DNA of 64,000 nt from a virus (Duplodnaviria; Heunggongvirae; Uroviricota; Caudoviricetes). Under the pieces are notes generated by a model. It was not told where the DNA came from and ran no database searches. It was given only the letters and a program-made list of their open reading frames with translations. The stretch lies in IMG/VR virus record IMGVR_UViG_3300034107_000364; one strand, given 5' to 3'. This document shows positions 79 through 52,622 of the stretch, in pieces; the first letter of the stretch is position 1, and every line of letters starts with the position of its first letter. The translations under genes and the position numbers were made by a program.

Positions 79-161
79 TTGTTCGTAACTTTTTTAAAAA
101 TACTTGACATAATGCTTTTTTATGTCAAGTTTTTCACGTATATTTACATTATAATTAAAAC
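79..161 (+). promoter_or_regulatory. intergenic terminator/promoter cassette, copy 1 (TTGTTCGTAACTTTT ... TTATGTCAA ... GTATATTTACATTATAATTAAAA)
   Basis: ~80-nt conserved module found 14x in window, each ending 8-15 nt upstream of a + strand start codon; contains TAnnTT(A/T)G -7-like and TATAATTAAAA elements. Confidence 0.6.
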
Positions 162-170
162 AGTTAAACT

Positions 171-527
171 ATGCAGATCAAAATTAATAAAGACCAAGAA
201 CAAGTTTTAAAGGACGCTATTGAACTTTACATCTTAAACCTAGTGGGTAAAGGTAAAAAGTATAACAATGCAGTTGAAATCTTAAATACGATTAATTCAA
301 CCGGATTAGTTACTGAAGAAACTAGAATTCCTAAGGTATTTATAGAAAAGCAATATATGTTCACATTTACTGAAGGTGGTTGGAATACAGTTTGGGCTAA
401 AACTAAACGTGGAGCCATCCGAGCTGCCATGTCAGAGTATAAGGATTCAACTCTTAATCCTATTCCCACATCATTCCATGTAGCCACAAAAGCAGGTTTG
501 AAGTCAGCATTGAGCTTATTTTACTAA
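171..527 (+). CDS. hypothetical protein (118 aa)
   Basis: ORF immediately downstream of cassette copy 1, ATG start; no recognisable motifs. Confidence 0.55.
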   Translation: MQIKINKDQEQVLKDAIELYILNLVGKGKKYNNAVEILNTINSTGLVTEETRIPKVFIEKQYMFTFTEGGWNTVWAKTKRGAIRAAMSEYKDSTLNPIPTSFHVATKAGLKSALSLFY

Positions 528-600
528 TTGTTCGTAACTTTTAGAAAATAAATTTTTTATTGTCAATTATTATTAGTATATTAGCTTTATAATTAAAAAC
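528..600 (+). promoter_or_regulatory. terminator/promoter cassette, copy 2
   Basis: TTGTTCGTAACTTTTAGAAAATAAATTTTTTATTGTCAA...GTATATTAGCTTTATAATTAAAAAC; begins at stop codon of previous CDS. Confidence 0.6.
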
Positions 601-607
601 AAATAAG

Positions 608-787
608 ATGTCAACAACAGAAATTAGAGCAGAACTTGTAGAATTAATCAATAGTGGTATGTTAAACGTTCCTAAACTTGTTAAATTCTTTAAGACAAAT
701 CGACCAACAGCTAACATAGTTACAGTCACAGAAGAAGCAAAGGAATTGGTCGCTGAAGTAAAAATGGTAATAAAAAGAGGTTATTAA
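608..787 (+). CDS. hypothetical small protein (59 aa, below ORF-track cutoff)
   Basis: ATG 8 nt after cassette copy 2; MSTTEIRAELVELINSGMLNVPKLVKFF...; same spacing as other cassette-driven genes. Confidence 0.45.
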   Translation: MSTTEIRAELVELINSGMLNVPKLVKFFKTNRPTANIVTVTEEAKELVAEVKMVIKRGY

Positions 788-789
788 AA

Positions 790-862: not shown

Positions 863-879
863 TTAAAAAAAACAATCAT

Positions 880-1844: not shown

Positions 1845-1856
1845 CAACAAAAAAAT

Positions 1857-2255: not shown

Positions 2256-2328
2256 GCCTCCATAGCTCAGTTGGTAGAGCAGCTGATTTGTAATCAGCAG
2301 GTCGTTGGTTCGAGTCCGACTGGAGGCT
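2256..2328 (+). tRNA. tRNA-Thr(TGT)
   Basis: acceptor GCCTCCA/TGGAGGC, D-arm TAGCTCAGTTGGTAGAGC, anticodon loop TTTGTAA. Confidence 0.85.
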
Positions 2329-2343
2329 CATTTAATAAAAATA

Positions 2344-3288
2344 ATGAATAAATTTATGAATGGTTATCACACTTATTATAAATTTGAAAATGAATTTAGA
2401 AAGAGCTATCATGAATATGAAGCAATTGATGTTTTAGCTCAATTAACTTCTATTCTATTTTGGAAAAAGAATTACGGTTCAATCAAACTATATTCTAATA
2501 CTGATCATTTAGATCTTATTAAAAAATATGGAATTGATAAAGAATATGATTTTATAGACACTAATTTACTGGATTCAATGCCATATAAAGATAAAGCATC
2601 AAGATATTGGAGTTTCTCTAAGATTCACGCTGCTAAGGAAATATCTAAATATGATAAAGAATTTTGTATAATTGATACAGATCTATGGATTAAAGAACCT
2701 AATCTACTTAATACAGATTCTGATTTTAGTTTATATCATGAAGAGCATTTCGATATAAATATAGGTTTCAATAATTATCATGATCCTATAAATTGGATGA
2801 ATGATATTAAAGAATTTGATTGGACATGTTGGCCCATGAACTGTGCTATTATGTATTTTAATAATAGAACTAAAGAGTTGATAGATTCTTGGTATAATGA
2901 AGTTACTAAAGTAATTGAATTAGACAAGAACCCTGATAATTTAAAAAATAAACGTAATAGTGCTATTTTTATAGAACAGAGACTATTACCTACTATTGCT
3001 AGAAAACTTGCAATAACTTGTAGTTCAATTAAACCAAATGCATTTTTGGTTAGAACTTTTAAAGAGAATATTGAATGGAATGAAAAATGGAAACCTTTTT
3101 TAAATTCATCAGATGAGAGTCTTAAAATTGAACATTCGATTATTCACATTTGGGGTAAAAGAATGAGATATAATGAAGATTGGACTAGAAAAAATGTATT
3201 GAAACAGATTCTAAGAGATTTACAACAATTTCCTAGAATAGAACAAAAATACGAAAAGTTATTTAATGAATGTTATAAATTAATTTAA
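2344..3288 (+). CDS. hypothetical protein (314 aa), possible GT-A-like nucleotide-sugar transferase
   Basis: ORF track start (TTG at 2305) overlaps tRNA-Thr, so first ATG at 2344 used; CIIDTDLW could be a DxD motif; weak. Confidence 0.5.
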   Translation: MNKFMNGYHTYYKFENEFRKSYHEYEAIDVLAQLTSILFWKKNYGSIKLYSNTDHLDLIKKYGIDKEYDFIDTNLLDSMPYKDKASRYWSFSKIHAAKEISKYDKEFCIIDTDLWIKEPNLLNTDSDFSLYHEEHFDINIGFNNYHDPINWMNDIKEFDWTCWPMNCAIMYFNNRTKELIDSWYNEVTKVIELDKNPDNLKNKRNSAIFIEQRLLPTIARKLAITCSSIKPNAFLVRTFKENIEWNEKWKPFLNSSDESLKIEHSIIHIWGKRMRYNEDWTRKNVLKQILRDLQQFPRIEQKYEKLFNECYKLI

Positions 3289-3471
3289 AAAGTGTAGCTC
3301 AGTGACATTAATGAGAGCAATCTTCAGTACTTCGCAATTTGCAAGGAACATAGACGTGACGGTAGGTTGGATTCCTCCCACTTTTTTTATTTAGATGGTG
3401 TCTCGGTACGCTCTGAAGAAATTCAACGACGAGGTCTCGGTAGGCAAAAGGCCTTTGATCCTACCCATATT

Positions 3472-4356: not shown

Positions 4357-4394
4357 CAGAACAAAGAGTTCTTTGACATCTTGGTGAAAACGAT

Positions 4395-4621: not shown

Positions 4622-4627
4622 CAAAAA

Positions 4628-4708
4628 TGTTCGTAACTTTTGAAAAATAATTACGAAAACGTTTTTTAGATTCAAAAACTTTGTGTATATTTACATATAA
4701 TTAATAAC
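4628..4708 (+). promoter_or_regulatory. terminator/promoter cassette, copy 4, inside tRNA array
   Basis: ATGTTCGTAACTTTTGAAAAATAATTACGAAAACGTTTTTTAGATTCAAAAACTTTGTGTATATTTACATATAATTAATAAC; ~35 nt upstream of tRNA-Gly, implying it drives tRNA transcription. Confidence 0.55.
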
Positions 4709-4742
4709 GAAAGTTCTTTGACATGTTGGAAATAACAAATAA

Positions 4743-4814: not shown

Positions 4815-5290
4815 CGAGAGAGACTGTTATTAATTCATAGGGCGTATAGAGTCGCTACATAGAATTAGACCTTAATTTTGAGACGTTTATGATTAGGTTC
4901 GCTACCTAATCAAAGATGCGATCCGAAACCTTAGTAATAAGGCAGCTCAAATTAAAAAGTGTTGGCTTCAGACTCCCAGTAGGGAAGTACACTTAAATAA
5001 AACAACAACGGGGAAAGTGTCGACTCGAGAAACGGCAAGTACCAACGACGGGAAGCGGTATCAATCAAACACCTCTACGTGGTGATACTAGAAATTGGTT
5101 ATGAACCTTGCGCAAGGAAAGCAACCAAAACCAAGTTTGAAAATGCATAGGTAACCGAAAGAATGTGGTTCGAGTCCACACCCGTAATAGCCAAAGGGTT
5201 GAAGCATTGAGGATGATGCATAGGTTATAACAGAGCTGCAGCTCTAGGATAGGTCTGGTTAAAGTAGGCAGTGCCAATACAAAAGGTTCG
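4815..5290 (+). other. tRNA-debris region: orphan T-arm/acceptor-like hairpins without cognate 5' halves
   Basis: GATTAGG-TTCGCTA-CCTAATC; TGTGG-TTCGAGT-CCACA followed by CCCGTAA with no pairing 5' acceptor; 59-nt mini tRNA-like GGATAGG...AAAGG-TTCGAAT-CCTTT-CTATCC. Confidence 0.4.
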
Positions 5291-5400
5291 AATCCTTTCT
5301 ATCCACAATTTAATAATTACCCCAGTATGATTGGTAAGCGTCAGAAAGTAACATCTGAGTGGCAGTGTAATTATTAAGAGGTAAGGAAAAGACTAAAAAT

Positions 5401-5497
5401 GATTATGAGGCCATTGGTTGGCGGCACCTCACAAAGGTTGAGTTGAAATACACTCTTTATTGTAAAGCTGAAATTGGTTCGAATCCAATCATAATTA
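5401..5497 (+). tRNA. atypical tRNA-like (type II, 97 nt), anticodon unresolved
   Basis: acceptor GATTATG/CATAATT, clean T-arm ATTGG-TTCGAAT-CCAAT, but ~29-nt variable region and poor anticodon stem; possible pseudo-tRNA. Confidence 0.3.
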
Positions 5498-5625
5498 CAA
5501 ATTCTAAGAGTAATTAACTTAGAACTGTCAGGTTCGAAACTGACGATTGATATTGGTGTAATGGAGCACGGAGGCCGTAATTGGAGCTCAGGTTTAAGGT
5601 TCGAATCCTTTTATATCAGCAATAT

Positions 5626-7224: not shown

Positions 7225-7329
7225 CAAAAAATGAAACTTTTTTAATTGATCAAGTATAATTATCAAATTAACAAAGTTCTTTAAAATATTAAAGGTTTCT
7301 TACAGCAATTAAAAAGCAATCAGAACCGG

Positions 7330-7420
7330 TACATTGTAGGTTCGAGTCCTACCTCTCCAACAACACAACTATGAAAACTTGGAGAGTGGTGAAATTGGTA
7401 AACACACTGGTAAGCAAAAA
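7330..7420 (+). other. tRNA halves in permuted order: 3'-half-like (T-arm + acceptor CTCTCCA) ~25 nt upstream of complementary 5'-half-like (TGGAGAG + Leu-type D-arm)
   Basis: GTAGG-TTCGAGT-CCTAC-CTCTCCA at 7336-7359 has no 5' partner upstream; TGGAGAG-TG-GTGAAATTGGTAAACAC at 7380-7406 has no 3' partner downstream; the two pair perfectly with each other; flanked by repeated ACAGCAA(A)T motifs. Confidence 0.35.
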
Positions 7421-7629
7421 CAGAAACCTGTAAATTCTTGGGATACCTACAGCAAATACACATCTTCAATCTATAAACTGAAAACCAACGTGTATCCCGT
7501 ATTTTTAAAATATAAAGGATGCTTCCAGCAAATTTAAAAACTTTTATTGGAAAAAGCAAATCAGCATCCTGTTATTTTATTCATTTAACCAGCCGGCTTT
7601 ATTAGATACATATATAAATATTACAATAA

Positions 7630-8403: not shown

Positions 8404-8430
8404 AAAAAAAGCCGCAATTGCGGCTTTTTT
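8404..8430 (+). terminator. rho-independent terminator
   Basis: AAGCCGCAATTGCGGCTT hairpin + T6. Confidence 0.7.
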
Positions 8431-8483
8431 AGTTTTATATATTTAAAAGAATATATAGATTATACTCAAAAATTAAAAACAAT

Positions 8484-9610: not shown

Positions 9611-9694
9611 CTAATTTCATAACTTCTTAAAATGAATCACATTCATGATATATAATAAAGTACTTATGTACTGATAAAAATATTATAACATGTA

Positions 9695-11366: not shown

Positions 11367-11415
11367 GATGAAACTAAATTGTAATTTTTAATACAATACC
11401 TAAACTATAGTATAA

Positions 11416-11619
11416 ATGGCTTTACCCTGCCCAAATTGTCAAACACCACTAGGAATAACATTAGATTTTATTGTTAAAAATCCTATGTCAGTTTGTCCAA
11501 GTTGTCAAACTGTATTTAATTTTGCAGTAAGTGAAGAAATCATAGAATCATTTAAAGAAGCTCTACAAGAAATTGAAGACATCAAAAAACAATATAACGG
11601 TTTAGTAAAATTCGGATAA
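11416..11619 (+). CDS. zinc-ribbon protein
   Basis: two CxxC pairs: CPNCQ ... CPSCQ. Confidence 0.5.
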   Translation: MALPCPNCQTPLGITLDFIVKNPMSVCPSCQTVFNFAVSEEIIESFKEALQEIEDIKKQYNGLVKFG

Positions 11620-11671
11620 GCTCTAGGATATATACTATAATAATATAAAACAAAATAAAAAACACTAAATT

Positions 11672-12277
11672 ATGGCAGCAGATATTTCAGCTCAATTCAC
11701 GGGTCTACCAATTGAAGACCTTATCGTTTCACCAATCGTCGGTATGGCGAAAGGTCAAGCAAAATTAAACGATGTAACATGGAAATACATCAACGAAGTA
11801 GCATTCGTAACAGACAAAGATGGTAATACTACCGCTAGATCTTTAGACGTACAAATGCAAAGAGTTATGACAGATCCTACTGATGGATCTCAGTCAGTTA
11901 AAACTCTTTATTCTAAAGTACCTATGTTACCTTTAGTTCCACTTCCAGCATTAGCAATCACATCTGCTGATATTGCTTTCACAATGGAAGTTAAAACATC
12001 AGAAGTTAACAAAGATTCTTCAGATTCTTCTGCAAGTTTTAGCGCTAGCGCATCTGGTGGATTTTGGGGTATGAAATACTCAGCTACTATGTCAGGAAGC
12101 GTTGCAGCTCACCACGAGAATACAAGAAGCACTGATAATTCAGCTAAGTATGATGTAAAAGTACATGCTGAGCAATTACCACCAACTGAAGGTATGTTAA
12201 AGCTTTCTGATTACCTAACTCAAATGTTAGAGCCATCATTGATCGAGCCTTCTAAGAACGCTAACGGTCCAGCATAA
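11672..12277 (+). CDS. hypothetical protein (201 aa), Ser-rich low-complexity centre
   Basis: followed by strong terminator; possibly paired-DUF (DUF2589/2590-like) with next gene - unverified. Confidence 0.55.
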   Translation: MAADISAQFTGLPIEDLIVSPIVGMAKGQAKLNDVTWKYINEVAFVTDKDGNTTARSLDVQMQRVMTDPTDGSQSVKTLYSKVPMLPLVPLPALAITSADIAFTMEVKTSEVNKDSSDSSASFSASASGGFWGMKYSATMSGSVAAHHENTRSTDNSAKYDVKVHAEQLPPTEGMLKLSDYLTQMLEPSLIEPSKNANGPA

Positions 12278-12303
12278 TATTAAAACAAATATTTTTTAAA
12301 TTT

Positions 12304-12333
12304 AAACCCGATTGGAAACAATCGGGTTTTTTT
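12304..12333 (+). terminator. rho-independent terminator
   Basis: AAACCCGATTG-gaaa-CAATCGGGTTT + T7. Confidence 0.75.
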
Positions 12334-12361
12334 GTGTATAATATTAAATAATAAATGTAAA

Positions 12362-12844
12362 ATGTCTAAATTAAATATTGAAGAGCTTCTCGGTGGTCTT
12401 TTAGAAGCAGCAATGGTTGCACAAGGAATTAGTGAAAAACAACACATAAATTCTTTGGCCAATTATTTTGATAATGGTGTTCCAAAAACAATAGATTTTA
12501 AAGTAGGAGAAAAGACTGTTACTGTTCCTCTTTATATTTTAGCAGATCATTCATCGATTGGACTTAGTGAATTAGATATAGAATTTGAAACAAGATTAGT
12601 TTTTGGAAACACTGATGATCCAGTTTCTAAAGTTAAACAATCAATACTAGGTCTTTTTAGAAAGAAAGGTTATAAACATAATCTTGGTGGAATTGAAGTA
12701 GATTCAGGTGCTACAAACACCAATAATTCTGGTATGGCAAAAATCAAAGTTAAATTTACATCAGACGATAAACCAGAAGCGGTTAGTAGACTAGTGGATC
12801 AATATATTCAAAGAATGATTACAAGTGATAATAAAACGGTCTAA
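12362..12844 (+). CDS. hypothetical protein (160 aa)
   Basis: first ATG (MSKLNIEELL) used rather than track start 12332. Confidence 0.5.
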   Translation: MSKLNIEELLGGLLEAAMVAQGISEKQHINSLANYFDNGVPKTIDFKVGEKTVTVPLYILADHSSIGLSELDIEFETRLVFGNTDDPVSKVKQSILGLFRKKGYKHNLGGIEVDSGATNTNNSGMAKIKVKFTSDDKPEAVSRLVDQYIQRMITSDNKTV

Positions 12845-12927
12845 TTGTTCGTAACTTTTTTAAAAATAATTAGCCAAACATTTTTTTGTTTGGCTTTTTT
12901 TGTGTATATTTACTCTATAATTAAAAA
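12845..12927 (+). promoter_or_regulatory. terminator/promoter cassette, copy 5 (hairpin variant)
   Basis: TTGTTCGTAACTTTTTTAAAAATAATT-AGCCAAACAtttttttGTTTGGCT-TTTTTTGTGTATATTTACTCTATAATTAAAAAC. Confidence 0.6.
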
Positions 12928-12937
12928 CAAACAAAAT

Positions 12938-13117
12938 ATGAGCACTAAAAAAGATTATTCAGACAAAATTAGTTACTATCGTTACAAAGTTAATCAAGCA
13001 ATTGAAAACTTAGATATCGAAGATTTGAATTACTATACTGCCAAGTTAAGTTATTTCATGGAACGCGAAAAAGCGGCTAGACGTGAAACTCTTATTTTTG
13101 GTCTTTATCCAGCTTAA
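12938..13117 (+). CDS. hypothetical small protein (59 aa)
   Basis: ATG 10 nt after cassette copy 5; track ORF 12845 start lies inside cassette so trimmed. Confidence 0.45.
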   Translation: MSTKKDYSDKISYYRYKVNQAIENLDIEDLNYYTAKLSYFMEREKAARRETLIFGLYPA

Positions 13118-13137
13118 TTAAATAATTCACATATAAT

Positions 13138-14838: not shown

Positions 14839-15426
14839 TTGAAAGTATTCGTTGCACCGCCGAAAGGTGAAATAGAAGGAAGAGCATATATTGATTGGAT
14901 TATATCAAAGGGTTTTGAACCTATTATGATAGATCTTAGGTATAAAAAGATAGATGCTCCATTAATGTTATGTGGAGGTGCAGATATTGGTAAAAATCCT
15001 GAAAGAGATCGACGTGAACTTGGTTGGATAAAAATGGCATTAGATGCACAACAACCAATTATAGGAGTTTGTCGTGGCATGCAAATATTGAATCACTATT
15101 TTGGTGGTAAGGTTGAAGATCTAAAAGACAGAATAGCAGAATATCATCAAAGTGATGAATTCTCAGATGATGAGGATCATAGTGAAAGAGAATCACAATT
15201 TCATTACATCAAAAATCTAGACGATGTAATGTTTGAAGTTAATTCTAGGCATCATCAATGGTGCTCAATTATTGCAGATAATTTTAACGTGACTCATATG
15301 TCTTTTGATGGTGGTTGGATTCCAGAAGCCATAGAAGATGAAGAACTTAAAATCATTGCAGTTCAATGGCACCCAGAAAGATTTGAGTGCCCAGAGGTAT
15401 TAAATCTATTTAAATATATAAAATAA
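14839..15426 (+). CDS. class I glutamine amidotransferase-like / peptidase C26 (gamma-glutamyl hydrolase-like)
   Basis: LCGGADI, GVCRGMQ (nucleophile Cys), QWHPE (His); TTG start per track. Confidence 0.6.
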   Translation: MKVFVAPPKGEIEGRAYIDWIISKGFEPIMIDLRYKKIDAPLMLCGGADIGKNPERDRRELGWIKMALDAQQPIIGVCRGMQILNHYFGGKVEDLKDRIAEYHQSDEFSDDEDHSERESQFHYIKNLDDVMFEVNSRHHQWCSIIADNFNVTHMSFDGGWIPEAIEDEELKIIAVQWHPERFECPEVLNLFKYIK

Positions 15427-16559: not shown

Positions 16560-16641
16560 TTGTTCGTAACTTTTTTAAAAATAGTTGAGCCCAAATTTTT
16601 TAGTTTGGGCTTTTTTTTGTATATTAGCTTAGTAATTAAAA
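16560..16641 (+). promoter_or_regulatory. terminator/promoter cassette, copy 6 (hairpin variant)
   Basis: TTGTTCGTAACTTTTTTAAAAATAGTT-GAGCCCAAAttttttagTTTGGGCTT-TTTTTTGTATATTAGCTTAGTAATTAAAAG. Confidence 0.6.
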
Positions 16642-16651
16642 GATAAACAAA

Positions 16652-16876
16652 ATGATCAGAGAAAAACAAGAGAAAAACGGACCAATTATTATTGATTTAA
16701 CAGGACCTGATGGTAATGCATTTGCTCTTATGGCTTATGCTAAACGATTTGCAACTCAATTGGGTTGGAAGGACAGAGGTGCTTCACTTATTACCGATAT
16801 GATGTCAAGTGACTATGAACATCTTTTAGAGGTTTTTGATAATGCATTTGGTGAATTTGTAATCCTAGAACGATAA
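16652..16876 (+). CDS. hypothetical protein (74 aa)
   Basis: ORF after cassette 6. Confidence 0.5.
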   Translation: MIREKQEKNGPIIIDLTGPDGNAFALMAYAKRFATQLGWKDRGASLITDMMSSDYEHLLEVFDNAFGEFVILER

Positions 16877-16878: not shown

Positions 16879-17223
16879 ATGAAAATTTATACATTTCCTC
16901 GCAGTACTTTTTATGGTGATGTTTTTGCCATAGTTAAGACTCTATCAGGTACATATGTATGTCCAGGCTGGCATCCTGTGCCAGATGGTACTACTAGAGA
17001 GCAAATTAAGTTTGAGGCAGCAGTTAATGTACCTAAAAAAGAAACTCGACCAGAGTCACCTAAAAAAGAATGGCAGGTAAATGGTTCTAAAGCTGGTGTA
17101 ACTTATACAGTTTCAGATACTAATGGATCTTGGAATTGTACATGTCCATCAAAAAGCTTCCACCGAGGTGATTGTAAACACATTAAAGCAAAAAAAGATG
17201 AATTGTTAATAACTTTATCTTAA
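16879..17223 (+). CDS. SWIM-type zinc-finger protein
   Basis: WNCTCPSKSFHRGDCKHI fits CxCxnCxH SWIM pattern. Confidence 0.45.
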   Translation: MKIYTFPRSTFYGDVFAIVKTLSGTYVCPGWHPVPDGTTREQIKFEAAVNVPKKETRPESPKKEWQVNGSKAGVTYTVSDTNGSWNCTCPSKSFHRGDCKHIKAKKDELLITLS

Positions 17224-17225
17224 TA

Positions 17226-17275
17226 TATTTTTTTATATCAAATATTAGTTGTATATTAGCCTTATAATTAAAAAC
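17226..17275 (+). promoter_or_regulatory. promoter element (cassette 3' half only), copy 7
   Basis: GTATATTAGCCTTATAATTAAAAAC 8 nt upstream of ATG 17283. Confidence 0.5.
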
Positions 17276-17282
17276 AAACAAC

Positions 17283-17510
17283 ATGACAGAAGAACTTTAT
17301 TTAACAGAACAAGAGTACAAACAGTATCAAGAGATCATGAATACCAAAGAGTATTTGACTCAAGAAGAGTATGATTTTTGTTTCAATTGGGACCACGAAG
17401 AAACTCGTACCTCAACTAGTAAACTTTCAGAAGGACGATACTTGAATCTTAATGTATATTCTGAGGCTGAAAAAGAAGATTACGATTTTAGAAGAGAAAC
17501 TGGACTTTAA
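17283..17510 (+). CDS. hypothetical protein (75 aa)
   Basis: ORF. Confidence 0.5.
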   Translation: MTEELYLTEQEYKQYQEIMNTKEYLTQEEYDFCFNWDHEETRTSTSKLSEGRYLNLNVYSEAEKEDYDFRRETGL

Positions 17511-19528: not shown

Positions 19529-19932
19529 TGAAAAGATTTAACGAATGGTGCGATCGAATGGATCAGAACCTAAAGAATTTTGATTGGAAAGAAATATTAT
19601 ATTTTCTTTGGCCAATTTCAATGTTCTTTAAAAGAGAGCGTAAAAATGAAACTGGAAAGGCATTTGTTTACGATACTAAAATAGGAAATCCTATACAAAT
19701 TAGAAGCACTAGAAACATGTCTAATATGGAAATGATGTATGGTACTGATTTTTCTACCAGTGGATCCGGTAATGCATCTACCAGTGGAAATTTTGCAATG
19801 GACATGTATAAGGCTGGAATTGCTAGAGAAATATGTGAACAAATTATGAAAGGTGATCTTATAGATTGGGCCACGGAAGACACTCAAAATGGCACCCAGA
19901 TTACCGGACGTATAATTGTTAACAAGTTTTGA
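19528..19932 (+). CDS. hypothetical protein (134 aa)
   Basis: ORF; start overlaps previous stop. Confidence 0.5.
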   Translation: MKRFNEWCDRMDQNLKNFDWKEILYFLWPISMFFKRERKNETGKAFVYDTKIGNPIQIRSTRNMSNMEMMYGTDFSTSGSGNASTSGNFAMDMYKAGIAREICEQIMKGDLIDWATEDTQNGTQITGRIIVNKF

Positions 19933-19951
19933 TAAAATAGTTGCTCAAATA

Positions 19952-19996
19952 TTGTTTTATGTCAAAACTTTTGTGTATATTTACATATAATTAAAA
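19952..19996 (+). promoter_or_regulatory. promoter cassette (TTATGTCAA variant), copy 8
   Basis: TTTTATGTCAAAACTTTTGTGTATATTTACATATAATTAAAAAG upstream of PRPP-synthetase-like gene. Confidence 0.55.
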
Positions 19997-20007
19997 AGAA
20001 ACAAATC

Positions 20008-22247: not shown

Positions 22248-22248
22248 A

Positions 22249-22320
22249 TGTTCGTAACTTTTTAATAATAAATTTTACCAGATCAATTATTATTAGTATA
22301 TTTACTTTATAATTAAAAAC
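22249..22320 (+). promoter_or_regulatory. terminator/promoter cassette, copy 9
   Basis: ATGTTCGTAACTTTTTAATAATAAATTTTACCAGATCAATTATTATTAGTATATTTACTTTATAATTAAAAAC. Confidence 0.6.
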
Positions 22321-22329
22321 AATCAATAT

Positions 22330-24544: not shown

Positions 24545-24823
24545 ATGAAAAATTCAATAGGACTTATAAATTACGAAGGAGATTGTCTTAAATTAGTTAA
24601 AGACAATGATGCACTTCATGTTAAAGATCAATATGGTCAAACTGTAATGCAGAATATTACAGTAGAAAGGGTATATGAATTCATATCGGGTACTATAAGT
24701 ATCACTGATAGTGAAGGTAAAGGTTGGTGGTTTACATTAGAACACGAGAACGCAAAACCATCACTTTTTAAAATACATGAATTCCTTAAAGATATTAACA
24801 TCAAAATCTGCAAATGTTCGTAA
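24545..24823 (+). CDS. hypothetical protein (92 aa)
   Basis: ORF; stop codon lies inside TTGTTCGTAA of cassette 10. Confidence 0.45.
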   Translation: MKNSIGLINYEGDCLKLVKDNDALHVKDQYGQTVMQNITVERVYEFISGTISITDSEGKGWWFTLEHENAKPSLFKIHEFLKDINIKICKCS

Positions 24824-24895
24824 CTTTTTAAAAAATAATCAGCCAAACATTTTTTTGTTTGGCTTTTTTTTAGTATATTAGCCTTATAATTAAAA
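24815..24895 (+). promoter_or_regulatory. terminator/promoter cassette, copy 10 (hairpin variant)
   Basis: TGTTCGTAACTTTTTAAAAAATAATC-AGCCAAACAtttttttGTTTGGCT-TTTTTTTAGTATATTAGCCTTATAATTAAAAC. Confidence 0.6.
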
Positions 24896-24906
24896 CACTA
24901 ATCAAT

Positions 24907-27470: not shown

Positions 27471-27667
27471 CAAATTTAATAGAATTCGCAAATTTGGTTA
27501 TGACCAAATATCCTCAACTTAAAGAAGAGGTAAAATCATTAGTTCAGTTATGTATTGATGAAATCGAAGAAGGCAGTCCAGAATCACATGAAATTCAATT
27601 ATGTTGGAGTGATATTGAGGAACTAGTAAAAGAGGAAGAGGTTAGTATTTTGTCTAGAAATATATAA
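27467..27667 (+). CDS. hypothetical protein (66 aa)
   Basis: ORF. Confidence 0.4.
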   Translation: MTNLIEFANLVMTKYPQLKEEVKSLVQLCIDEIEEGSPESHEIQLCWSDIEELVKEEEVSILSRNI

Positions 27668-29933: not shown

Positions 29934-30003
29934 TTCATACACTATTGAAACAAACCAGAACAGCCCAGTATAACATATATAATAAATAAAACAAATATAA
30001 AAC

Positions 30004-30177: not shown

Positions 30178-30400
30178 TTAAACCTTAAAAAACTGTTCGA
30201 GTAGGCATTAAGACTTATTCACTCTGATGCTAAAGTGGTGGACACCATATATACGATAAAGGTTACTAATCAACACATACCAGAATGGTTCTGATACTGA
30301 ACTTGAGATTAGAGCGGTTAGATCCCGAAGTGATATGAGTTTTAAATGGAATAGGCTAGTTTCTCACATCGCTAAAATTAATACGATATATAAGTATCGC

Positions 30401-30521: not shown

Positions 30522-30604
30522 TTGTTCGTAACTTTTTTAAAAATAGTTAAGCCCAGATTTTTTAGTTTGGGCTTTTTTTAGTATATTAGCCTTATAATTA
30601 AAAC
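30522..30604 (+). promoter_or_regulatory. terminator/promoter cassette, copy 11 (hairpin variant)
   Basis: TTGTTCGTAACTTTTTTAAAAATAGTT-AAGCCCAgattttttagTTTGGGCTT-TTTTTAGTATATTAGCCTTATAATTAAAAC. Confidence 0.6.
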
Positions 30605-30612
30605 AGTAGATC

Positions 30613-30756
30613 ATGAAAGAGACTAAAAAAATCAAATTAGAAAAAATTAACATAACATTACAGGAATGGTTTGATGCTCTTAAAGTGCCTGCGCCTTATC
30701 GTAATAAAAAGAAGTATTTTCGTAAAGACAAACATAAAAAGAAAGATTGTTCGTAA
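30613..30756 (+). CDS. hypothetical small basic protein (47 aa)
   Basis: ATG 9 nt after cassette 11; ends in the TTGTTCGTAA of cassette 12. Confidence 0.4.
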   Translation: MKETKKIKLEKINITLQEWFDALKVPAPYRNKKKYFRKDKHKKKDCS

Positions 30757-30822
30757 CTTTATTAAAATATATTTTTTTATGTCGAAAATTATATGTATAT
30801 TTACCCTATAACAATTAAAAAC
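30747..30822 (+). promoter_or_regulatory. terminator/promoter cassette, copy 12
   Basis: TTGTTCGTAACTTTATTAAAATATATTTTTTTATGTCGAAAATTATATGTATATTTACCCTATAACAATTAAAAAC. Confidence 0.55.
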
Positions 30823-30830
30823 AATTAAAA

Positions 30831-31091
30831 ATGAAAAAATTATTCATTATAGCTATCGCAGCTATTTCACTAGCATCTTGTACAGAAAATCAAAGAGCTA
30901 GATCATTTGGTGGAACTGAGGTTATTAACCTAGAAGCTGGAACACGAGTAGTAAATGTTACCTGGAAAGGTAAAGATGCAAGTCTTTGGATCTTGACTAA
31001 AAAAGATACCACTGAAGCATCTACTTATTACTTTACTGAGAAATCTGGTTTTGGAGTAATGGAAGGACAAGTAATCATTAACGAAAAATAA
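30831..31091 (+). CDS. lipoprotein
   Basis: MKKLFIIAIAAISLASC lipobox. Confidence 0.55.
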   Translation: MKKLFIIAIAAISLASCTENQRARSFGGTEVINLEAGTRVVNVTWKGKDASLWILTKKDTTEASTYYFTEKSGFGVMEGQVIINEK

Positions 31092-34282: not shown

Positions 34283-35044
34283 TTGGATCAGTATAAAATA
34301 GTACGAGTTCATGAAGATGGTCTTAGATTTTATCAAGTTACCGAAGGCGATACAGTAATAGCTAAATTACCATCTGTTACCACAGTTTTAGGTCAAACTA
34401 AAGATCAATCTGGATTGGACAAATGGCGTCAAAAAGTCGGTGAAGCAGAAGCTGATCGAATTTCAACGCTATCTATGAATAGAGGTACTATTATGCACAG
34501 ACTTATAGAACTATATAAGGGCACTTCTGGCGAAGCTAACGAAAGGCTTATTATTCTTAAAGATTTGGCAAAAGAAGATGATGAGTGCAACCAATTCAGT
34601 GATGATGAGAACGGAGCTTTGTACTTAGCAGAAGCTTGGAAATTCTTTTACAAATTCTACTTTAATAGTTCAGATTATTTTGACAGAATTAAAAAAGTAT
34701 TAGAAGCTGAAACATTCTTATGGACTACAAAAGCTGGAGGTTGGGCAGGTACAGTAGATAACATATCTGAAATGACAGATAATTTGATTAAGATCATTGA
34801 CTACAAAAATTCACGTAAACCAAAACAAGAACATTGGATTCAAGATTATTTCATTCAAACAGGTGCTTATTTTATAGCATATTGGGATAGAACTGGTATT
34901 AAGGCAGATGGAGCAGAAATTTGGATCGCAAACGAAGAAGATAATTTACCACAATGTTTCTCATTAACACAACAAGATTTAGAATTCTATTCAAAAGAAT
35001 TCATGAGAAGAAGAAAAATGTTTAAAGAAAAATTTAATATATAA
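34283..35044 (+). CDS. PD-(D/E)xK superfamily nuclease (phage exonuclease/Cas4-like fold)
   Basis: GTVDNISE...IIDYKNS (D...(D/E)xK) arrangement; TTG start. Confidence 0.45.
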   Translation: MDQYKIVRVHEDGLRFYQVTEGDTVIAKLPSVTTVLGQTKDQSGLDKWRQKVGEAEADRISTLSMNRGTIMHRLIELYKGTSGEANERLIILKDLAKEDDECNQFSDDENGALYLAEAWKFFYKFYFNSSDYFDRIKKVLEAETFLWTTKAGGWAGTVDNISEMTDNLIKIIDYKNSRKPKQEHWIQDYFIQTGAYFIAYWDRTGIKADGAEIWIANEEDNLPQCFSLTQQDLEFYSKEFMRRRKMFKEKFNI

Positions 35045-43481: not shown

Positions 43482-43554
43482 TGATAGAGTTAAAGAAAAA
43501 TATAAACTCGATATATAAGTTATAAGTGTTTAAATTAAAAACATAAAAAACATC

Positions 43555-48008: not shown

Positions 48009-48078
48009 ACTATTTTTTAAAAAAGGTGTTTTTTTAAAAAACTAAATGAATTGCCCAGATATATAATCAGAGCGCAAT

Positions 48079-48291: not shown

Positions 48292-48320
48292 AGAGCAGCT
48301 TTTTTAGCTGCTTTTTTCTT
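48292..48320 (+). terminator. rho-independent terminator
   Basis: AGAGCAGCTtttttAGCTGCTTT + T-run. Confidence 0.65.
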
Positions 48321-48383
48321 TTATGAAACAAAATGAAGATAAATAATATAAATATATAATCTAAAATAATAAAAAACAAAATT

Positions 48384-48815: not shown

Positions 48816-48847
48816 GAATATATAAAGTAAAATATACAAACAAACAT

Positions 48848-51800
48848 ATGTCATCATTTATTAATTTCAATAATAAAGAAGTTACGACTGGAGCAAGCTA
48901 TACTGCTGAAGCGGTTAAAATAGCTTTATTAAAGTCAGAGACTAAAAGCTCTATAAAAGCTGAAACGCTTACAAAAAATATCAAAGAACCTTTGTCTTTA
49001 AATGAGGCTTTAGTATTTTTTACTGATAAATTATCAGCCATGAAATCATTATCTCTTGCAAATGCAGAGATCAATGAAGGAAAGATCAAGCAATTCGAAA
49101 CGGATTACAAGGATATGGAAACCAGTATCAAGAGAGGTATTGGTTGGATTGATCCAGAATATGTAGCAGATACTTGGGAAAATTCATCAGACTCTATTGA
49201 TTTTGAATTAGTTAAAACCGAGCTTTATAAGAGATTAATTGCTGCAGGTTTATTAGCATTTTCAAATCCAGAAGATGGTGAAACAAAAGGTGTACCTGTT
49301 AGAAGTTTAAAAGACTTAAGTATTAAAGAGTCTTTAGAAGCAAATAAGGTTAACGAAACTTTATTCTTTGCATTCTTTAATAACAAGAAAATCGAAGTAG
49401 AAGGTAAAGATCTTTGGGATGCTAAACAAAAAGCAATCATCGAATTAAAGGTACCTAAATCTAAAGTTGGTTTATTAGCTGTAGTAAGTGCTGAATCACA
49501 AAAGAATCAAGATTTTAAATTTGAATCTTTTGTAGGTGAAAGTGAAGTCATCACTGTTGAGGTTGATATGGCATGGGATGATTTAGACAAAGAAGAAGAC
49601 AAAGCAGCTAAAGCAGCTTTCAAGAAATATAAGATCAAAGTTGAACCAATGAGTCTGGGTCGCGGTAGTCAGGACATTCGTCAAGAAGGAACTTTCGAAG
49701 TAACTGGTAAGAAAAAAGACATTCTTGCATATCTTAAAAGTGATTTCTATGAAATGGATCAAGAAACTATTGAAGAATACTATCCTGAACTTTTAGAATC
49801 TTCTAAAAAACCAGCAGGTCTTACATTAGACGATACAAAAAAGGTTGCAGAATTATATGCTAGCGCTCTTTCTAAAGCAGATGGTGTTAAAGCTACTGTT
49901 AATAAAAAATCACTAGAAGAAGATTCATTTGATTTAGATGTAGATGGCGAAGAATATGCAGGTGGATCTTACAATATTTATCATAACGGAGAAGTAGTTA
50001 ATCATGCAGTTCCAGGATCACCGGTATATGGTTATTTTGATGATAAGCTTGATACTATTGTAAAAAACATAAAAAATCCAAAATTACACGAGAGTGCAAT
50101 GTCAGATATTGATATTATGGCTCAAGAAGCAAAAGATTTTAAATCATTTGTAAAAGAGTTTAAAAAAGAACATCATGACTTATCTAGTGCTGGTGAACCA
50201 GGTCAATTTGAAGCATGGTTACAAACAATTTACGATACTGCTAAAGAAAACATGGACGAGTCAGTAGTTAACGAAGGTCAATTCTCATGGATGGCTCAAG
50301 ATACTGGAAATCAAATTGGTTCTGAAAAACAAAATACCATTACTATTACAATGTTTGATGACAAAGGTAATAAATGGGAAGAAAAGAAATATGACGGTTA
50401 CGGTGAATTCGGTGGTAAAGATTACTACGAATTATTAGCTCAAATGAATGGAATTGAAAATCCTAATAGACAAGATGGTATTGATATTGCATTTGATAAA
50501 AAGAAAGTTAGTGGAAAAGTTCTTTTCCCAGCTTTAGTTGAAGATCCAAAACGTTTCAACTTCAAAAAGCACGATTTTACACAAGAAGCAGAACATGATC
50601 CAAATCAATCATGGTACCAAGAAGAAGAGTACGATGATGATTATGAAGAGTATGATGAATCTAAAGTTACTGAAGCAGCAAGAGTACCTTCTAATGTTTT
50701 AGATTTTGCTAAAAGAAAAGGAAGTTATGCAACTTCATTGGTTAAGAAAGCTGCTACATGGGCTGAAAAAGCTGGTAAGTATATTAGCGGTGGTACTGCA
50801 ATTGGTAAAGATTATATGACTATAATTTTAGACATGAAACATCAAGGTTCTGAAATTTATATTAATCTAAATGACGAAACAATTGAATTATTTGGCGAAG
50901 AAGTTACTGATGCTAAATCATTCCAAAAAGTATTAGATGCAAATATGTCAGAATCTAAAGTTAATGAATCTGCGGCTGATCTAATAAAATATGTTGAAAC
51001 CGCATCTGAAAAAACTTTCAAAGGTGGTGGTAATGGTCAAAATCTATTAGATAATGCAATGGAACTTGCTTCACACATTGGAGACTATGAAATGGGCAGA
51101 CCTACTAGAGGATATGAAGAAGATGGTTTTTATGGTCCAGCTACAATAACTTTATTTAAAAGATTAGTTGATCAAATGTCAGCAGATGATATTAAAAATA
51201 ATCAAGCTGATAAATATGAATCTAAAGTTACTGAATCACATTTTAAAGTTGGCGACAAAGTAAAAATGTCACATGGTGGAACTGGTGTAATTGTTTCTTT
51301 AGATAAAGAAGATGGCGCAGAGGATGAAAAATACTATAATGTAGAATTACCAAACGGAGAAATGCACAAGCACGCACCTAATGAATTGACTAAAGAATCA
51401 GTAGTTATTGAAGGTATATCTGTTACAGACGAGAGAGTTTATGGTAAAAAAGGTATTATCATTATGATTGATGATAATGGTAAACAAGTATCTGCGATAT
51501 TCAAAGATAAAAAGAATGCTGACAAATACAATAGAAATAAGGCAGAAGATATTAAAGCTCTTTTAGATTTAGCTAAAGATACTAAATATCCAAATGCTAT
51601 TGATGAATCTGTTGTTAATGAAGGTAGATCAATCAATAAAATCCAAAAAGAATGGAGTGAAACTACTACTAAAATGCAACAAAAAGCAGGTGAGTGGAAA
51701 GTAGCTGAAGGCGATAGAAAATCTGAATTGTTGGATGAAATGAAAGCATTGACAGCTAAGAAAAGAGAATTAGAAGCAGAATTAGACGCAGCTGTTGCTG

Positions 51801-52426
51801 GTAAAGATAAAGATCTTGAATTAGTAGTATCTGAAGGAAATGCATTCGGTGCCGCAAGAGCTAAAGCAATTGCAGATGGTGCTAAAGAATTTGAATTTGA
51901 AGGTGAAACTTATAAAGTTGAAGATGTTGGAGCAGACGATAAAGAAAATGCAAAAGAATTCGTAGAAGAAGGAAATGCATTCTTGGCTGCAAGAGCTAAA
52001 GCAATCGAAGAAGATGCTGAAGAATTTGAATTTAATGGTAAAACCTTTCCAGTTATTGAAGAAGGAAATGCATTCGGTGCAGCAAGAGCAAAAGCTATTG
52101 CAGATGGTGCAAAAGAATTTGAATTTGAAGGCGAAACTTATAAAGTAGAAGACGCTGGACCAGACGATAAAAAAAATGCTAAGGAATTCGTAGAAGAATC
52201 TAAATTAACGTTAGATGCTTTAGTAGAAATGTTTGAGGTAAAGGTTAACGAAGATTTAAGATCTGATGTTAAGAAATTTATCAAAGACAATGCAAATGAA
52301 TTAAACACTTTAGCTGATAAAGACGAATGGGACTTAATGTATACAAAACTATACAATGAGTTCAATGTTGAAGCAAATTCAACAAAAGGAAAAGACTTAT
52401 TAAAGACATTCCAGTTCGTATTCTAA
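48848..52426 (+). CDS. large acidic protein (1192 aa) with 3x ~33-aa internal repeats and recurrent ES(V/K)V(N/T)E motifs
   Basis: repeats EGNAFGAARAKAIADGAKEFEFEGETYKVED x3 near C-terminus; motifs DESVVNEG (x2), ESKVTE (x2), ESKVNE. Confidence 0.55.
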   Translation: MSSFINFNNKEVTTGASYTAEAVKIALLKSETKSSIKAETLTKNIKEPLSLNEALVFFTDKLSAMKSLSLANAEINEGKIKQFETDYKDMETSIKRGIGWIDPEYVADTWENSSDSIDFELVKTELYKRLIAAGLLAFSNPEDGETKGVPVRSLKDLSIKESLEANKVNETLFFAFFNNKKIEVEGKDLWDAKQKAIIELKVPKSKVGLLAVVSAESQKNQDFKFESFVGESEVITVEVDMAWDDLDKEEDKAAKAAFKKYKIKVEPMSLGRGSQDIRQEGTFEVTGKKKDILAYLKSDFYEMDQETIEEYYPELLESSKKPAGLTLDDTKKVAELYASALSKADGVKATVNKKSLEEDSFDLDVDGEEYAGGSYNIYHNGEVVNHAVPGSPVYGYFDDKLDTIVKNIKNPKLHESAMSDIDIMAQEAKDFKSFVKEFKKEHHDLSSAGEPGQFEAWLQTIYDTAKENMDESVVNEGQFSWMAQDTGNQIGSEKQNTITITMFDDKGNKWEEKKYDGYGEFGGKDYYELLAQMNGIENPNRQDGIDIAFDKKKVSGKVLFPALVEDPKRFNFKKHDFTQEAEHDPNQSWYQEEEYDDDYEEYDESKVTEAARVPSNVLDFAKRKGSYATSLVKKAATWAEKAGKYISGGTAIGKDYMTIILDMKHQGSEIYINLNDETIELFGEEVTDAKSFQKVLDANMSESKVNESAADLIKYVETASEKTFKGGGNGQNLLDNAMELASHIGDYEMGRPTRGYEEDGFYGPATITLFKRLVDQMSADDIKNNQADKYESKVTESHFKVGDKVKMSHGGTGVIVSLDKEDGAEDEKYYNVELPNGEMHKHAPNELTKESVVIEGISVTDERVYGKKGIIIMIDDNGKQVSAIFKDKKNADKYNRNKAEDIKALLDLAKDTKYPNAIDESVVNEGRSINKIQKEWSETTTKMQQKAGEWKVAEGDRKSELLDEMKALTAKKRELEAELDAAVAGKDKDLELVVSEGNAFGAARAKAIADGAKEFEFEGETYKVEDVGADDKENAKEFVEEGNAFLAARAKAIEEDAEEFEFNGKTFPVIEEGNAFGAARAKAIADGAKEFEFEGETYKVEDAGPDDKKNAKEFVEESKLTLDALVEMFEVKVNEDLRSDVKKFIKDNANELNTLADKDEWDLMYTKLYNEFNVEANSTKGKDLLKTFQFVF
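51820..52200 (+). repeat. in-frame tandem coding repeat (3 copies, ~100 nt unit)
   Basis: gaaggaaatgcattcggtgc(c/a)gcaagagc(t/a)aaagc... repeated. Confidence 0.6.
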
Positions 52427-52427
52427 A

Positions 52428-52510
52428 TTGTTCGCAACTTTTATGAAAATAATTAAGCCCAAATTTTTTAGTTTGGGCTTTTTTTTGTATATTAGCTCTA
52501 TAATTAAAAC
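52428..52510 (+). promoter_or_regulatory. terminator/promoter cassette, copy 13 (hairpin variant, TTGTTCGCAAC)
   Basis: TTGTTCGCAACTTTTATGAAAATAATT-AAGCCCAAAttttttagTTTGGGCTT-TTTTTTGTATATTAGCTCTATAATTAAAAC. Confidence 0.6.
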
Positions 52511-52568
52511 AAAATTAGAAGCTTTCATATAAATAGTATGAATAAATTGAAAATAAACGATAAATAGT

Positions 52569-52622
52569 TTTTTATGTCGTTTTTTTCGTGTACATTAACA
52601 ATATTAACCAATTAAATTTAAA
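52569..52622 (+). promoter_or_regulatory. promoter cassette variant, copy 14
   Basis: TTTTTATGTCGTTTTTTTCGTGTACATTAACAATATTAACCAATTAAATTTAAAAC upstream of ATG 52626. Confidence 0.45.

Follow-up and report, generated by a model that had tools for sequence, protein, structure and literature searches.

The 64,000-nucleotide stretch of Caudoviricetes DNA in IMG/VR record IMGVR_UViG_3300034107_000364 (the window) carries a repeated unit of 80-90 bases, here called the cassette, which stands before many of its genes and always on the + strand. Its anatomy, copy number and conservation identify it as a real regulatory repeat that extends throughout a phage family. We consider it probable that each cassette is a self-contained expression unit, in which a host-type promoter is joined to a leader and, in six copies, to a terminator, and which also acts as a point of gene exchange. 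An earlier reading, made from the sequence alone, had listed fourteen copies, and we find a copy at every one of these positions; twelve are full (box A, box B and leader, defined below) and two are partial, the copy at 19952 having a degenerate box A and that at 52569 being decayed.

Anatomy and distribution of the cassette

The box B decamer GTATATTWRC occurs 15 times in the window, all on the + strand, against 0.84 expected, and 13 of these occurrences lie within cassettes. The other two (50779-50788 and 55704-55713) are inside coding sequence without any other element and are probably chance matches. The 23-mer GTATATTAGCCTTATAATTAAAA has nine matches with at most three mismatches where none is expected, and box A, searched as TGTTCGTAACTTT with at most two mismatches, has 12-13 matches on the + strand and three weak ones on the - strand. 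Among IMG/VR contigs the cassette is found in 41 stretches from about 27 contigs, and 142 non-redundant instances were collected. A search of 185,579 bacterial species genomes with the cassette pattern gave no matches, and a host repeat or prophage element was therefore rejected; a known RNA family was rejected because Rfam finds only tRNAs in the window. Searches of the literature for the motif strings and for promoters of Flavobacterium or Bacteroidetes phages brought up no relevant prior description.

The elements follow a constant order: box A (TTGTTCGTAACTTTT) at the upstream stop codon, an AAAATAA tract, an optional hairpin with a T-run, box B (G-TATATT[AG/TA]-C), the A-rich leader (TAATTAAAA, box C) and the ATG. 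To describe the family we derived a consensus from 75 non-redundant instances in the window and related loci, anchored on box B with its G as position 0. It consists of AAAATA at -41 to -36, ATTTTTT at -24 to -18, T(G)TCAA at -15 to -10, TTTTT at -6 to -2, box B as GTATATT(AG/TA)C at 0 to 9, and the leader TAATTAAAA at 14 to 22; box A, as TTGTT(C/A)(G/A)TAACTTT, lies at a variable position, is present in about half of the instances and is lineage-specific. Box B is 32-36 nt from the ATG in most copies, the exceptions being the copy before the sigma factor gene (42 nt), that at 4628, which precedes a tRNA-Gly gene, and that at 52428, which no gene follows. The last two also depart from the earlier statement that copies end 8-15 nt before an ATG, a range that has to be widened to 9-19 nt for the other twelve. 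Several copies had been described as beginning in a TTCGTAA that contains the upstream stop codon; this is so in two (24814 and 30747), and in six others the stop codon ends 0-2 nt before box A.

Six copies are of the long form, with a hairpin. Cassette 1 (79-170, ATG at 171) has box A at 79-93, a hairpin at 98-134 (CTTGACATAA/TTATGTCAAG, folding free energy [dG] -13.0) followed by a T-run, box B at 138-147 (TATATTTA) and box C at 150-160. Cassette 5 (12845-12937, ATG at 12938) has box A at 12845-12859, a hairpin at 12872-12895 (AGCCAAACA/TGTTTGGCT, dG -12.9) plus T7, box B at 12904-12913 and box C at 12916-12926. Cassette 6 (16560-16651, ATG at 16652) has box A at 16560-16574, a hairpin at 16587-16612 (GAGCCCAAA/TTTGGGCTT, dG -14.6) plus T8, box B at 16619-16628 and the leader AGTAATTAAAA at 16631-16641. 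Cassette 10 (24814-24906, ATG at 24907) has box A at 24814-24828 with the upstream TAA (24821-24823) inside it, a hairpin at 24841-24864 (dG -12.9) plus T8, box B at 24873-24882 and box C at 24885-24895. Cassette 11 (30522-30612, ATG at 30613) has box A at 30522-30536, a hairpin with G.U pairs at 30549-30574 (AAGCCCAGA/TTTGGGCTT, dG -14.3) plus T7, box B at 30581-30590 and box C at 30593-30603. Cassette 13 (52428-52515), with the box A variant TTGTTCGCAACTTTT at 52428-52442, a hairpin of dG -14.3 plus T8, box B at 52487-52496 and box C at 52499-52509, is 'empty', being followed by a nine-codon remnant only and no open reading frame (ORF).

Five copies are of the short form. Cassette 2 (528-607, ATG at 608), without a stable hairpin, has box A at 528-542, immediately 3' of a stop codon ending at 527, box B at 576-585 (TATATTAG) and box C at 588-598. 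Cassette 3 (790-879) precedes the sigma factor gene (ATG at 880) and has the box A variant TTGTTAATAACTTTT at 790-804, box B at 838-847 and box C at 850-860. In cassette 7 (17203-17282, ATG at 17283) the box A variant TTGTTAATAACTTTA (17203-17217) overlaps the end of ORF 16879-17223, with box B at 17251-17260 and box C at 17263-17273. Cassette 9 (22248-22329) drives the NAMPT gene (ATG at 22330) and has box A at 22248-22262, box B at 22296-22305 and box C at 22308-22318. The box A of cassette 12 (30747-30830, ATG at 30831) is at 30747-30761 and contains the stop codon of ORF 30613-30756; box B is at 30795-30804 and the leader AACAATTAAAA at 30810-30820.

The three other copies are cassettes 4, 8 and 14. 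Cassette 4 (4627-4742), before tRNA-Gly (4743), has box A at 4627-4641, box B at 4685-4694 and a leader at 4696-4706, followed at 4713-4729 by a boxA of the ribosomal RNA operon (rrn) type (GTTCTTTGACATGTTGG). Cassette 8 (19916-20007) precedes a PRPP-synthase-like gene (ATG at 20008); its degenerate box A (TTGTTAACAAGTTTT, 19916-19930) lies within the end of the upstream ORF, and is followed by TTTTATGTCAA at 19955-19965, box B at 19975-19984 and box C at 19986-19996. The decayed cassette 14 (52565-52625) comprises TTTTTTATGTCG, then GTACATTAAC at 52590-52599 and an A-rich leader before the ATG of a glucosaminidase gene at 52626.

Proposed promoter, terminator and exchange functions

Mapped transcription starts of F. 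psychrophilum and F. johnsoniae show that flavobacterial sigma-A promoters have a TAnnTTTG box at -12 to -5, AT-rich motifs at -18 and -28 and a weak -33 element (PMC9723704; PMC6847099), the last being only weakly conserved in flavobacteria (PMC6847099). The Flavobacteriaceae rRNA promoters in the rrn leaders that we retrieved read (T/G)T(G/T)TAYWTTTGCA(C/G)CCG, with GTATATTTGC as the -7 box, as exemplified by TTGTATATTTGCACCCGC in Aquimarina and CTTGTATATTTGCAGTCCG in Tenacibaculum. Box B is this -7 box with one base changed and shares its flanking G at -13 and C at -4; every copy in the window matches five of the six fixed positions of TAnnTTTG, and the T-runs of the cassette sit where flavobacterial promoters have the -18 and -28 AT-rich motifs. 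Upstream of orthologues of the phage sigma factor the only boxes are TATATTAG, TATATTTA, TAGATTTA and the exact TATATTTG, that is TA(T/G)ATT(T/A)(G/A), and the exact box is found in seven sister lineages. The likeness to the Bacteroidetes -7 box pointed out in the sequence-only reading thus holds both against Flavobacteriaceae rRNA promoters and across phage lineages.

The translation signals and the tRNA operon have similar affinities. Only 2 of 101 coding sequences have a Shine-Dalgarno (SD) core, against 8.8% of random windows, in keeping with the earlier remark that the very short leaders lack one, and upstream of the same 101 starts A is most frequent at -3 (frequency 0.71) and -11 to -13 (0.64-0.68). 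A signature of this type has been reported for F. johnsoniae (PMC6847099), and A at -3 and -12/-13 is the pattern of Bacteroidota. Host rrn leaders carry GTTCTTTGAC and GCTCTTTGAAA downstream of their promoters, and the boxA that follows the cassette promoter before tRNA-Gly is of the same type; within the phage tRNA array this canonical form (GTTCTTTGAC...) is present at 4713-4729 and 4368-4376, and relatives have GCTCTTTGACATGTTGG at the same place. The match to rrn promoters, the box variants before the sigma orthologues, the lack of SD cores with the associated A signature, and the rrn-type boxA together make the host primary sigma-A the most likely reader of box B.

From the sequence we infer promoter activity, a start site, a pairing of sigma factor with motif and a temporal class. 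Host RNA polymerase carrying a Bacteroides/Flavobacterium-type sigma-A would bind box B and the T-rich tracts upstream of it, and transcription would start about 5 nt 3' of box B, at the A of 'TATAAT' in box C. The resulting A-rich leader of 19-23 nt would supply SD-independent translation signals, with A at -3 and at -11 to -13.

Several features fit poorly with this promoter assignment. None of 88 box B instances in the cassette-bearing loci and the window is a perfect consensus, and each allele breaks one near-invariant position, T-6 being changed to A in TATATTAG and G-5 to A in TATATTTA; the perfect TATATTTG is confined to regions upstream of sigma orthologues in other lineages. The -33-like TTG of TTATTGTCAA stands at a distance of 14 nt from the -7 box, compared with about 19 nt in a Polaribacter rrn promoter, and at the latter distance no TTTG was found in the cassettes, which have a TTG 12-14 nt upstream and a T-run at -33. 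The behavior of box A is also difficult to accommodate: lineages with only ~67% DNA identity between their genes have one and the same box A consensus, for which a plain promoter model is inadequate. A sigma-70 promoter of the TTGACA/TATAAT kind was considered separately and rejected, since a scan showed no enrichment (94 sites, with 102.6 expected) and TATAAT is not a conserved feature of the family.

Six of the fourteen copies (79, 12845, 16560, 24815, 30522 and 52428) have a strong hairpin (dG -12.9 to -14.6) with T7-8 behind it, and the remaining eight have no stable structure. Half of the copies had been credited with a hairpin; six have a strong one, and in copy 79 TTATGTCAA is itself a hairpin arm. 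In the wider set of 142 non-redundant cassettes used for the hairpin analysis, 46 (32%) fold at -8 kcal/mol or below, against 3.7% of shuffles, and 30 at -12 kcal/mol or below, against 0.1% of shuffles. At least ten unrelated stems share one location, each ending at the T-run. In 16 sequences that share a register, both partners change in seven of the nine pairs and 96.5% of cells are paired, the double changes being the informative figure rather than the percentage paired because the sequences were preselected for folding. In 38 of the 46 folding cassettes the + strand gives the more stable RNA, as expected from G.U pairs in the transcript. In some relatives the hairpin lies elsewhere, once enclosing box A, yet it still ends at the promoter T-run, and a terminator scan places the cassette hairpins among its top matches.

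These observations support selection on the hairpins as + strand RNA structures, and with it the earlier description of a composite expression cassette. The hairpins of the long form are presumably intrinsic terminators that reuse the promoter T-tract, such that the upstream T-run of the promoter would double as the terminator U-tract for the upstream transcript. The claim that every cassette both terminates and restarts transcription is retained in its second part; termination is possible in six of the fourteen, and the other eight, like short forms in general, would be promoter-only.

Every box A lies on the + strand and accompanies a cassette, its distance from box B being 46-48, 56-58 or 68-69 nt, but box A is missing from many functional-looking cassettes and would be an optional upstream module that is specific to certain lineages. 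Its candidate roles are those of an upstream promoter or factor site, of a signal in the upstream RNA, or of a conserved module boundary. We rejected a role as the -35 element of an extracytoplasmic function (ECF) sigma factor: ECF-dependent promoters pair a -35 'AAC' with a -10 'CGT' 16-17 nt away, and although box A contains GTAAC, nothing is conserved 16-17 nt downstream and box B is 46-69 nt away. Helical phasing of box A is suggestive but is not claimed, being equally explained by the presence or absence of a hairpin 5' arm of about 11 nt. Box A (TGTTCGTAAC) and a boxA-like, 16S-proximal element in Flavobacterium rrn leaders (ACGTTCGTAGAC) have GTTCGTA in common; an identity with rrn boxA was nevertheless rejected, and kept as speculation, because the similarity amounts to one shared 7-mer with one indel and the phage uses the canonical GTTCTTTGAC at 4713. 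Upstream of the sigma orthologues in five loci (L103 and L112-L115) a box A variant is tandemly duplicated with a 12-nt period (ATGTTAATAACTTGTTAATAACTTT).

The cassettes also coincide with differences in gene content. Synteny with relatives that are about 90% identical breaks within or beside cassettes at five or six places. Relatives L034 and L035 lack ORF 608-787 together with one cassette and retain a single hybrid cassette, whose box A is that of copy 528 and whose 3' half is that of copy 790. The stretch 11367-13130 of the window is missing from L036, L028 and L018, which carry a cassette at the corresponding junction (11366/13130). Homology to L026 and L033 begins at 19949, in cassette 8, and homology to L001 and L012 begins exactly at the box B of cassette 9 (22296), upstream of which those relatives have a different, long-form half. 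At copy 30522, L012 has the same upstream flank and box A, with another hairpin and another downstream gene (break at 30603). Five of the 32 breakpoints are no more than 30 nt from a cassette of the window, where 1.7 would be expected (P ~0.02). Because the cassettes are near-identical repeats abutting stop and start codons, homologous recombination between them could insert, delete and swap gene modules. As a point on the other side, about half of the synteny breaks, all of them in the tRNA array, are away from cassettes.

Two further observations concern the exchanged genes. The block 11367-13130 contains two adjacent DUF2589 paralogues (11672-12277 and 12362-12844), which are missing in L036, L028 and L018. 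A small gene starting MENSIKVGY..., with its own cassette, stands behind different neighbours in L009, L012, L014, L016 and L038, as if cassette and ORF moved jointly as a module.

The phage sigma factor, a second motif and alternative readings

The gene behind cassette 3 (880-1494, + strand) encodes a 204-residue ECF-type sigma factor with Pfam domains Sigma70_r2 and Sigma70_r4_2, as the sequence-only reading had supposed. It scores 67 bits against TIGR02937 (ECF superfamily; cut-off 42.9), its best family is Sig70_bacteroi1, below the cut-off of that family, and its best PDB matches are SigW (8e-10) and RpoE; it has regions 2 and 4 only, as is typical of ECF (group 4) factors. Its closest homologues among phages are encoded by huge uncultured phages, by Prevotella Lak phages and by crAss-like phages. 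Orthologues are present at 80 or more IMG/VR loci, with about 60 distinct upstream sequences and 53-100% protein identity, and a cassette-type promoter precedes nearly all of them. Regions 2 and 4.2 are invariant across the orthologues, whereas the cassette elements vary or drop out.

A second motif, R-ATATATAA, is a better candidate target for this sigma factor than the cassette, a proposal drawn from analogy with T4 and SPO1, from co-occurrence and from shared invariance. ATATATA[AGT] occurs 19 times on the + strand of the window and three times on the - strand, and 16 of the 19 have a start 10-47 nt downstream; RATATATAA is matched 15 times where 6.1 matches are expected. R-ATATATAA is strand-specific and is conserved throughout the phages that have the sigma factor. 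In the cassette loci the ATATATA motif is found 48 times on the gene strand and nine times on the other, and in about 490 kb around the sigma orthologues 78 times on the + strand and three times on the - strand. The cassettes are probably early promoters, to judge from the genes they drive (small ORFans, nucleotide and NAD genes, the tRNA operon and the phage sigma factor); the phage sigma factor would then redirect polymerase to R-ATATATAA as a second promoter class that operates without a -35 element.

The link between sigma factor and motif has its own difficulties. It consists of co-occurrence and shared invariance; ECF sigma factors normally need a -35 element, and no -35 partner of R-ATATATAA was seen. 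A classing of the ATATATAA-driven genes as virion genes was rejected, as PHROGs and Pfam give them no structural annotation, and this too counts against the scheme.

The sites of the second motif given here, all on the + strand, are spread through the window. R-ATATATAA is found at 1539-1547, between the sigma gene and the tRNA array, and ATATATAA at 7610-7617 (20 nt before ORF 7630) and 29975-29982 (29 nt before ORF 30004). Sites of the form GATATATAA lie at 9647-9655 (47 nt before ORF 9695), 30385-30393 (ending 7 nt before the 5' end of tRNA-Ala at 30401), 43510-43518 (44 nt before ORF 43555), 48058-48066 (20 nt before ORF 48079) and 53214-53222 (directly followed by TATAATTAAAA, 32 nt before ORF 53247). 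Those of the form AATATATAA lie at 15413-15421 (15 nt before ORF 15429), 27659-27667, 35036-35044 (23 nt before ORF 35060), 48351-48359 (32 nt before ORF 48384), 48817-48825 (30 nt before a 1192-residue ORF at 48848) and 61395-61403 (26 nt before a 559-residue ORF at 61422); at 27659 the ATG is 11 nt from the start of ATATATAA, and this site could give a leaderless transcript. ATATATAG is found at 8451-8458 (33 nt before ORF 8484) and 59673-59680 (29 nt before ORF 59702). Three sites follow non-cassette terminator hairpins, at ~8404-8430, ~48294-48311 and ~59634-59666, with ATATATA(A/G) within 20-45 nt (~8404-8458, ~48294-48359 and ~59634-59680). By its sequence this arrangement is a second kind of putative terminator-promoter composite, comparable to the PmSL of phage nt-1.

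Other readings of the cassette have to be weighed against that of a host-type promoter. The sequence-only reading had suggested that the phage sigma factor itself reads the cassettes, with box A (GTAAC) or TGTCAA as -35 and box B or box C as -10, and activates its own gene through cassette 3. The sigma gene is real and does lie behind a cassette, GTAACTTTT in box A resembles the -35 elements of ECF promoters (the sigma-W, sigma-X and sigma-E consensus), box B never matches the host consensus perfectly among its 88 instances, and an ATATATAA motif lies within the sigma leader in a few lineages (L069, L070 and L116-118). Even so we think this quite unlikely, because the first transcript of an injected genome cannot need a protein encoded by that transcript, box A and box B are too variably and too widely spaced (46-69 nt, with nothing conserved 16-17 nt 3' of AAC), and box B equals the host rrn -7 box to within one base, flanking bases included. 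Moreover, many cassettes and lineages lack box A and TGTCAA or have other sequence in their place, and box B varies too, while the DNA-reading regions 2 and 4.2 of the sigma factor are invariant, and a host-type promoter precedes the sigma gene in nearly all orthologues; neither the reading of cassettes by the phage sigma factor nor its autoregulation finds support. A more elaborate scheme makes the cassettes switch points of a three-tier programme, in which box A is a nut/boxA-like signal or phage-factor site that renders the terminators conditional and the sigma factor reads R-ATATATAA. The nut/boxA-like idea comes from the GTTCGTA shared with the rrn element and from the location of box A on the upstream transcript just before the hairpin, and we hold the scheme as a whole to be a long shot. 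If true, a three-tier transcription programme would be new for Bacteroidota phages, and single-box specificity without a -35 element would be unusual for a two-domain ECF sigma factor.

A further possibility is that two promoters overlap, with box B used early by host sigma-A and box C (TATAATTAAAA) used later by a phage-modified polymerase, keeping the genes on throughout. Box C TATAATTAAAA is close both to ATATATAA and to the T4 late promoter TATAAATA, its conservation exceeds simple A-richness, GATATATAA adjoins TATAATTAAAA at 53214-53233, and some lineages have ATATATAAA at the box C position. However, box C is far less conserved than box B (0.2-1.1 versus 1.4-2.7 bits per position), its register to box B slips by 0-3 nt, and its 'TATAAT', which the sequence-only reading had placed in a conserved element, varies across the family (AGTAAT, TCTAAT, TAACAT) and so does not qualify as a conserved -10 hexamer. 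With a start 6 nt 3' of box C the leader would be only about 2-8 nt long, and the A-run coincides with the preference of Bacteroidota mRNAs for A at -12 and -13. We regard this arrangement as improbable, and box C is better read as the transcript start plus an A-rich translation leader. Least probable is a non-regulatory repeat, either a miniature mobile element or a recombination scar with an incidental likeness to a promoter. Copies do stand at gene-content junctions between relatives, the copy at 52428 has no following gene and that at 52569 is decayed, but such an element would explain neither the strict orientation and fixed distance to start codons, nor the compensatory evolution of the hairpin in the RNA sense, nor the retention of its place before sigma orthologues of 53-100% identity; there are no terminal inverted repeats or target duplications, and bacterial genomes gave no matches.

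The phage and its place among known systems

The window is part of a large uncultured phage genome, 64 kb of about 165 kb or more. It has about 32% G+C, all of its genes are on the + strand, and it carries 25 tRNA genes together with accessory genes for NAMPT, a PRPP-synthase-like protein, an ATP-dependent DNA ligase, several glycosyltransferases, a KdsA-like enzyme, an epimerase, a NUDIX protein and lysozymes. A DNA search of 50,697 deposited phage genomes found no close relative, giving tRNA matches only, the best to Flavobacterium phages; an 811-residue protein has no phage match, and the matches of NAMPT and the ligase are only 30-53% identical, so that by these searches no cultured relative was found. 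Relatives in IMG/VR comprise contigs that are about 90-96% identical and more distant ones (about 67-80% at the DNA level), with lengths that reach 165 kb and 256 kb. The phage is lytic-looking, and its host is probably a Flavobacterium-like member of the Bacteroidota, most likely of the Flavobacteriia, as suggested indirectly by the affinities of the sigma factor, the SD/A-3 signature, the similarity to rrn promoters and a weak SprB-domain match in a neighbouring repeat protein.

That protein is encoded at 63127-64000, runs past the window end and consists of 450 residues of Pro/Thr/Ala-rich repeats (TPVPAPTATAIP...), which account for a jump to 42% G+C and a negative GC skew at the end of the window. 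A full-length copy in the locus L242 (7709-9061) has weak Pfam matches to SprB-repeat and Cornifin and is followed by proteins of 1294 and 906 residues. In the tRNA array, a 950-bp insertion (2331-3279) immediately 3' of tRNA-Thr is missing in L034 and L035, which are ~95% identical to the window; it is associated with a 327-residue ORF (2305-3288) with a TTG start, no Pfam match and no flanking cassette, and could be a mobile or homing element. Three long stretches of the array (3289-3471, 4816-5547 and 7226-7629) have no ORF or called tRNA. Two of them contain tRNA-like pieces (GTGTAGCTCAGTGAC...GGTTGGATTCCTCCCAC in one, and GGTTCGAGTCCTACCTCTCCA then GGAGAGTGGTGAAATTGGTAAAC in the other) that ARAGORN and Rfam do not call and that may be interrupted, permuted or decayed tRNAs.

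We know of no Bacteroidota phage of this size with a mapped transcription programme, and the one proposed here, in which host-type early cassettes lead to an early phage ECF sigma factor and this in turn to R-ATATATAA promoters, can be tested. Phage sigma cascades are familiar from SPO1 (gp28, gp33/34) and from T4, where gp55 recognises the late promoter TATAAATA. The proposed programme resembles them in its use of the host sigma factor early, followed by an early phage sigma factor and later by a single A/T-rich box without a -35 element, but the sigma factor here is a two-domain ECF type with Bacteroidota affinities and is neither gp55-like nor gp28-like.

As a promoter, the cassette resembles those of Flavobacteriaceae sigma-A in having T-12, A-11, T-8 and T-7, no G at -10/-9, G/T at -13 and C at -4, in its T/A-rich tracts one and two helical turns upstream, in its predicted leader of about 20 nt and, as in rrn operons, in the boxA that follows the tRNA-driving cassette. 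It differs in that window copies have one substitution, at T-6 or G-5, and in that the TTG element is 14 nt rather than about 19 nt from the -7 box. The promoter, leader and overlapping terminator are compact natural parts that could serve in genetic tools for Flavobacteriia.

The closest parallel is with the PeSL (promoter-early stem-loop) cassettes of the T4-type phages RB49/phi1, T4/PST and KVP40/nt-1, which mark insertion, deletion and replacement junctions between close relatives (Arbiol et al. 2010, PMC2839356; Comeau et al. 2014, PMC4122927). Both kinds occur as many near-identical copies that comprise an AT-rich upstream part, a stem-loop, an early host-type promoter, translation signals and the start codon, both cluster among small ORFans and accessory genes, both include decayed 'half' copies, and both are present at indel or replacement junctions of close relatives. 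Each is also accompanied by a second composite of a terminator with a non-early promoter, PmSL in the T4-type phages and terminator plus ATATATAA here. The cassette described here differs in having a Bacteroidota -7 type box in place of a sigma-70 -35/-10 pair, an A-rich leader without a Shine-Dalgarno sequence, a further conserved element of 15 nt (box A) next to the upstream stop codon, and a terminator U-tract that overlaps the upstream T-run of the promoter. The phages themselves also appear to be unrelated, with no cultured relative found and no T4 core gene recognised among about 60 scanned proteins of the window, which covers 64 kb of a genome of at least ~165 kb. To our knowledge, T4-type phages of Proteobacteria and cyanobacteria are the only ones in which repeated regulatory cassettes that also serve as recombination handles have been described. 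We class the present cassette as a PeSL variant of Bacteroidota style, in a phage that looks unrelated, and see no need for a new category; on this reading the PeSL idea extends to a family of uncultured Bacteroidota phages with different rules for promoters and translation.

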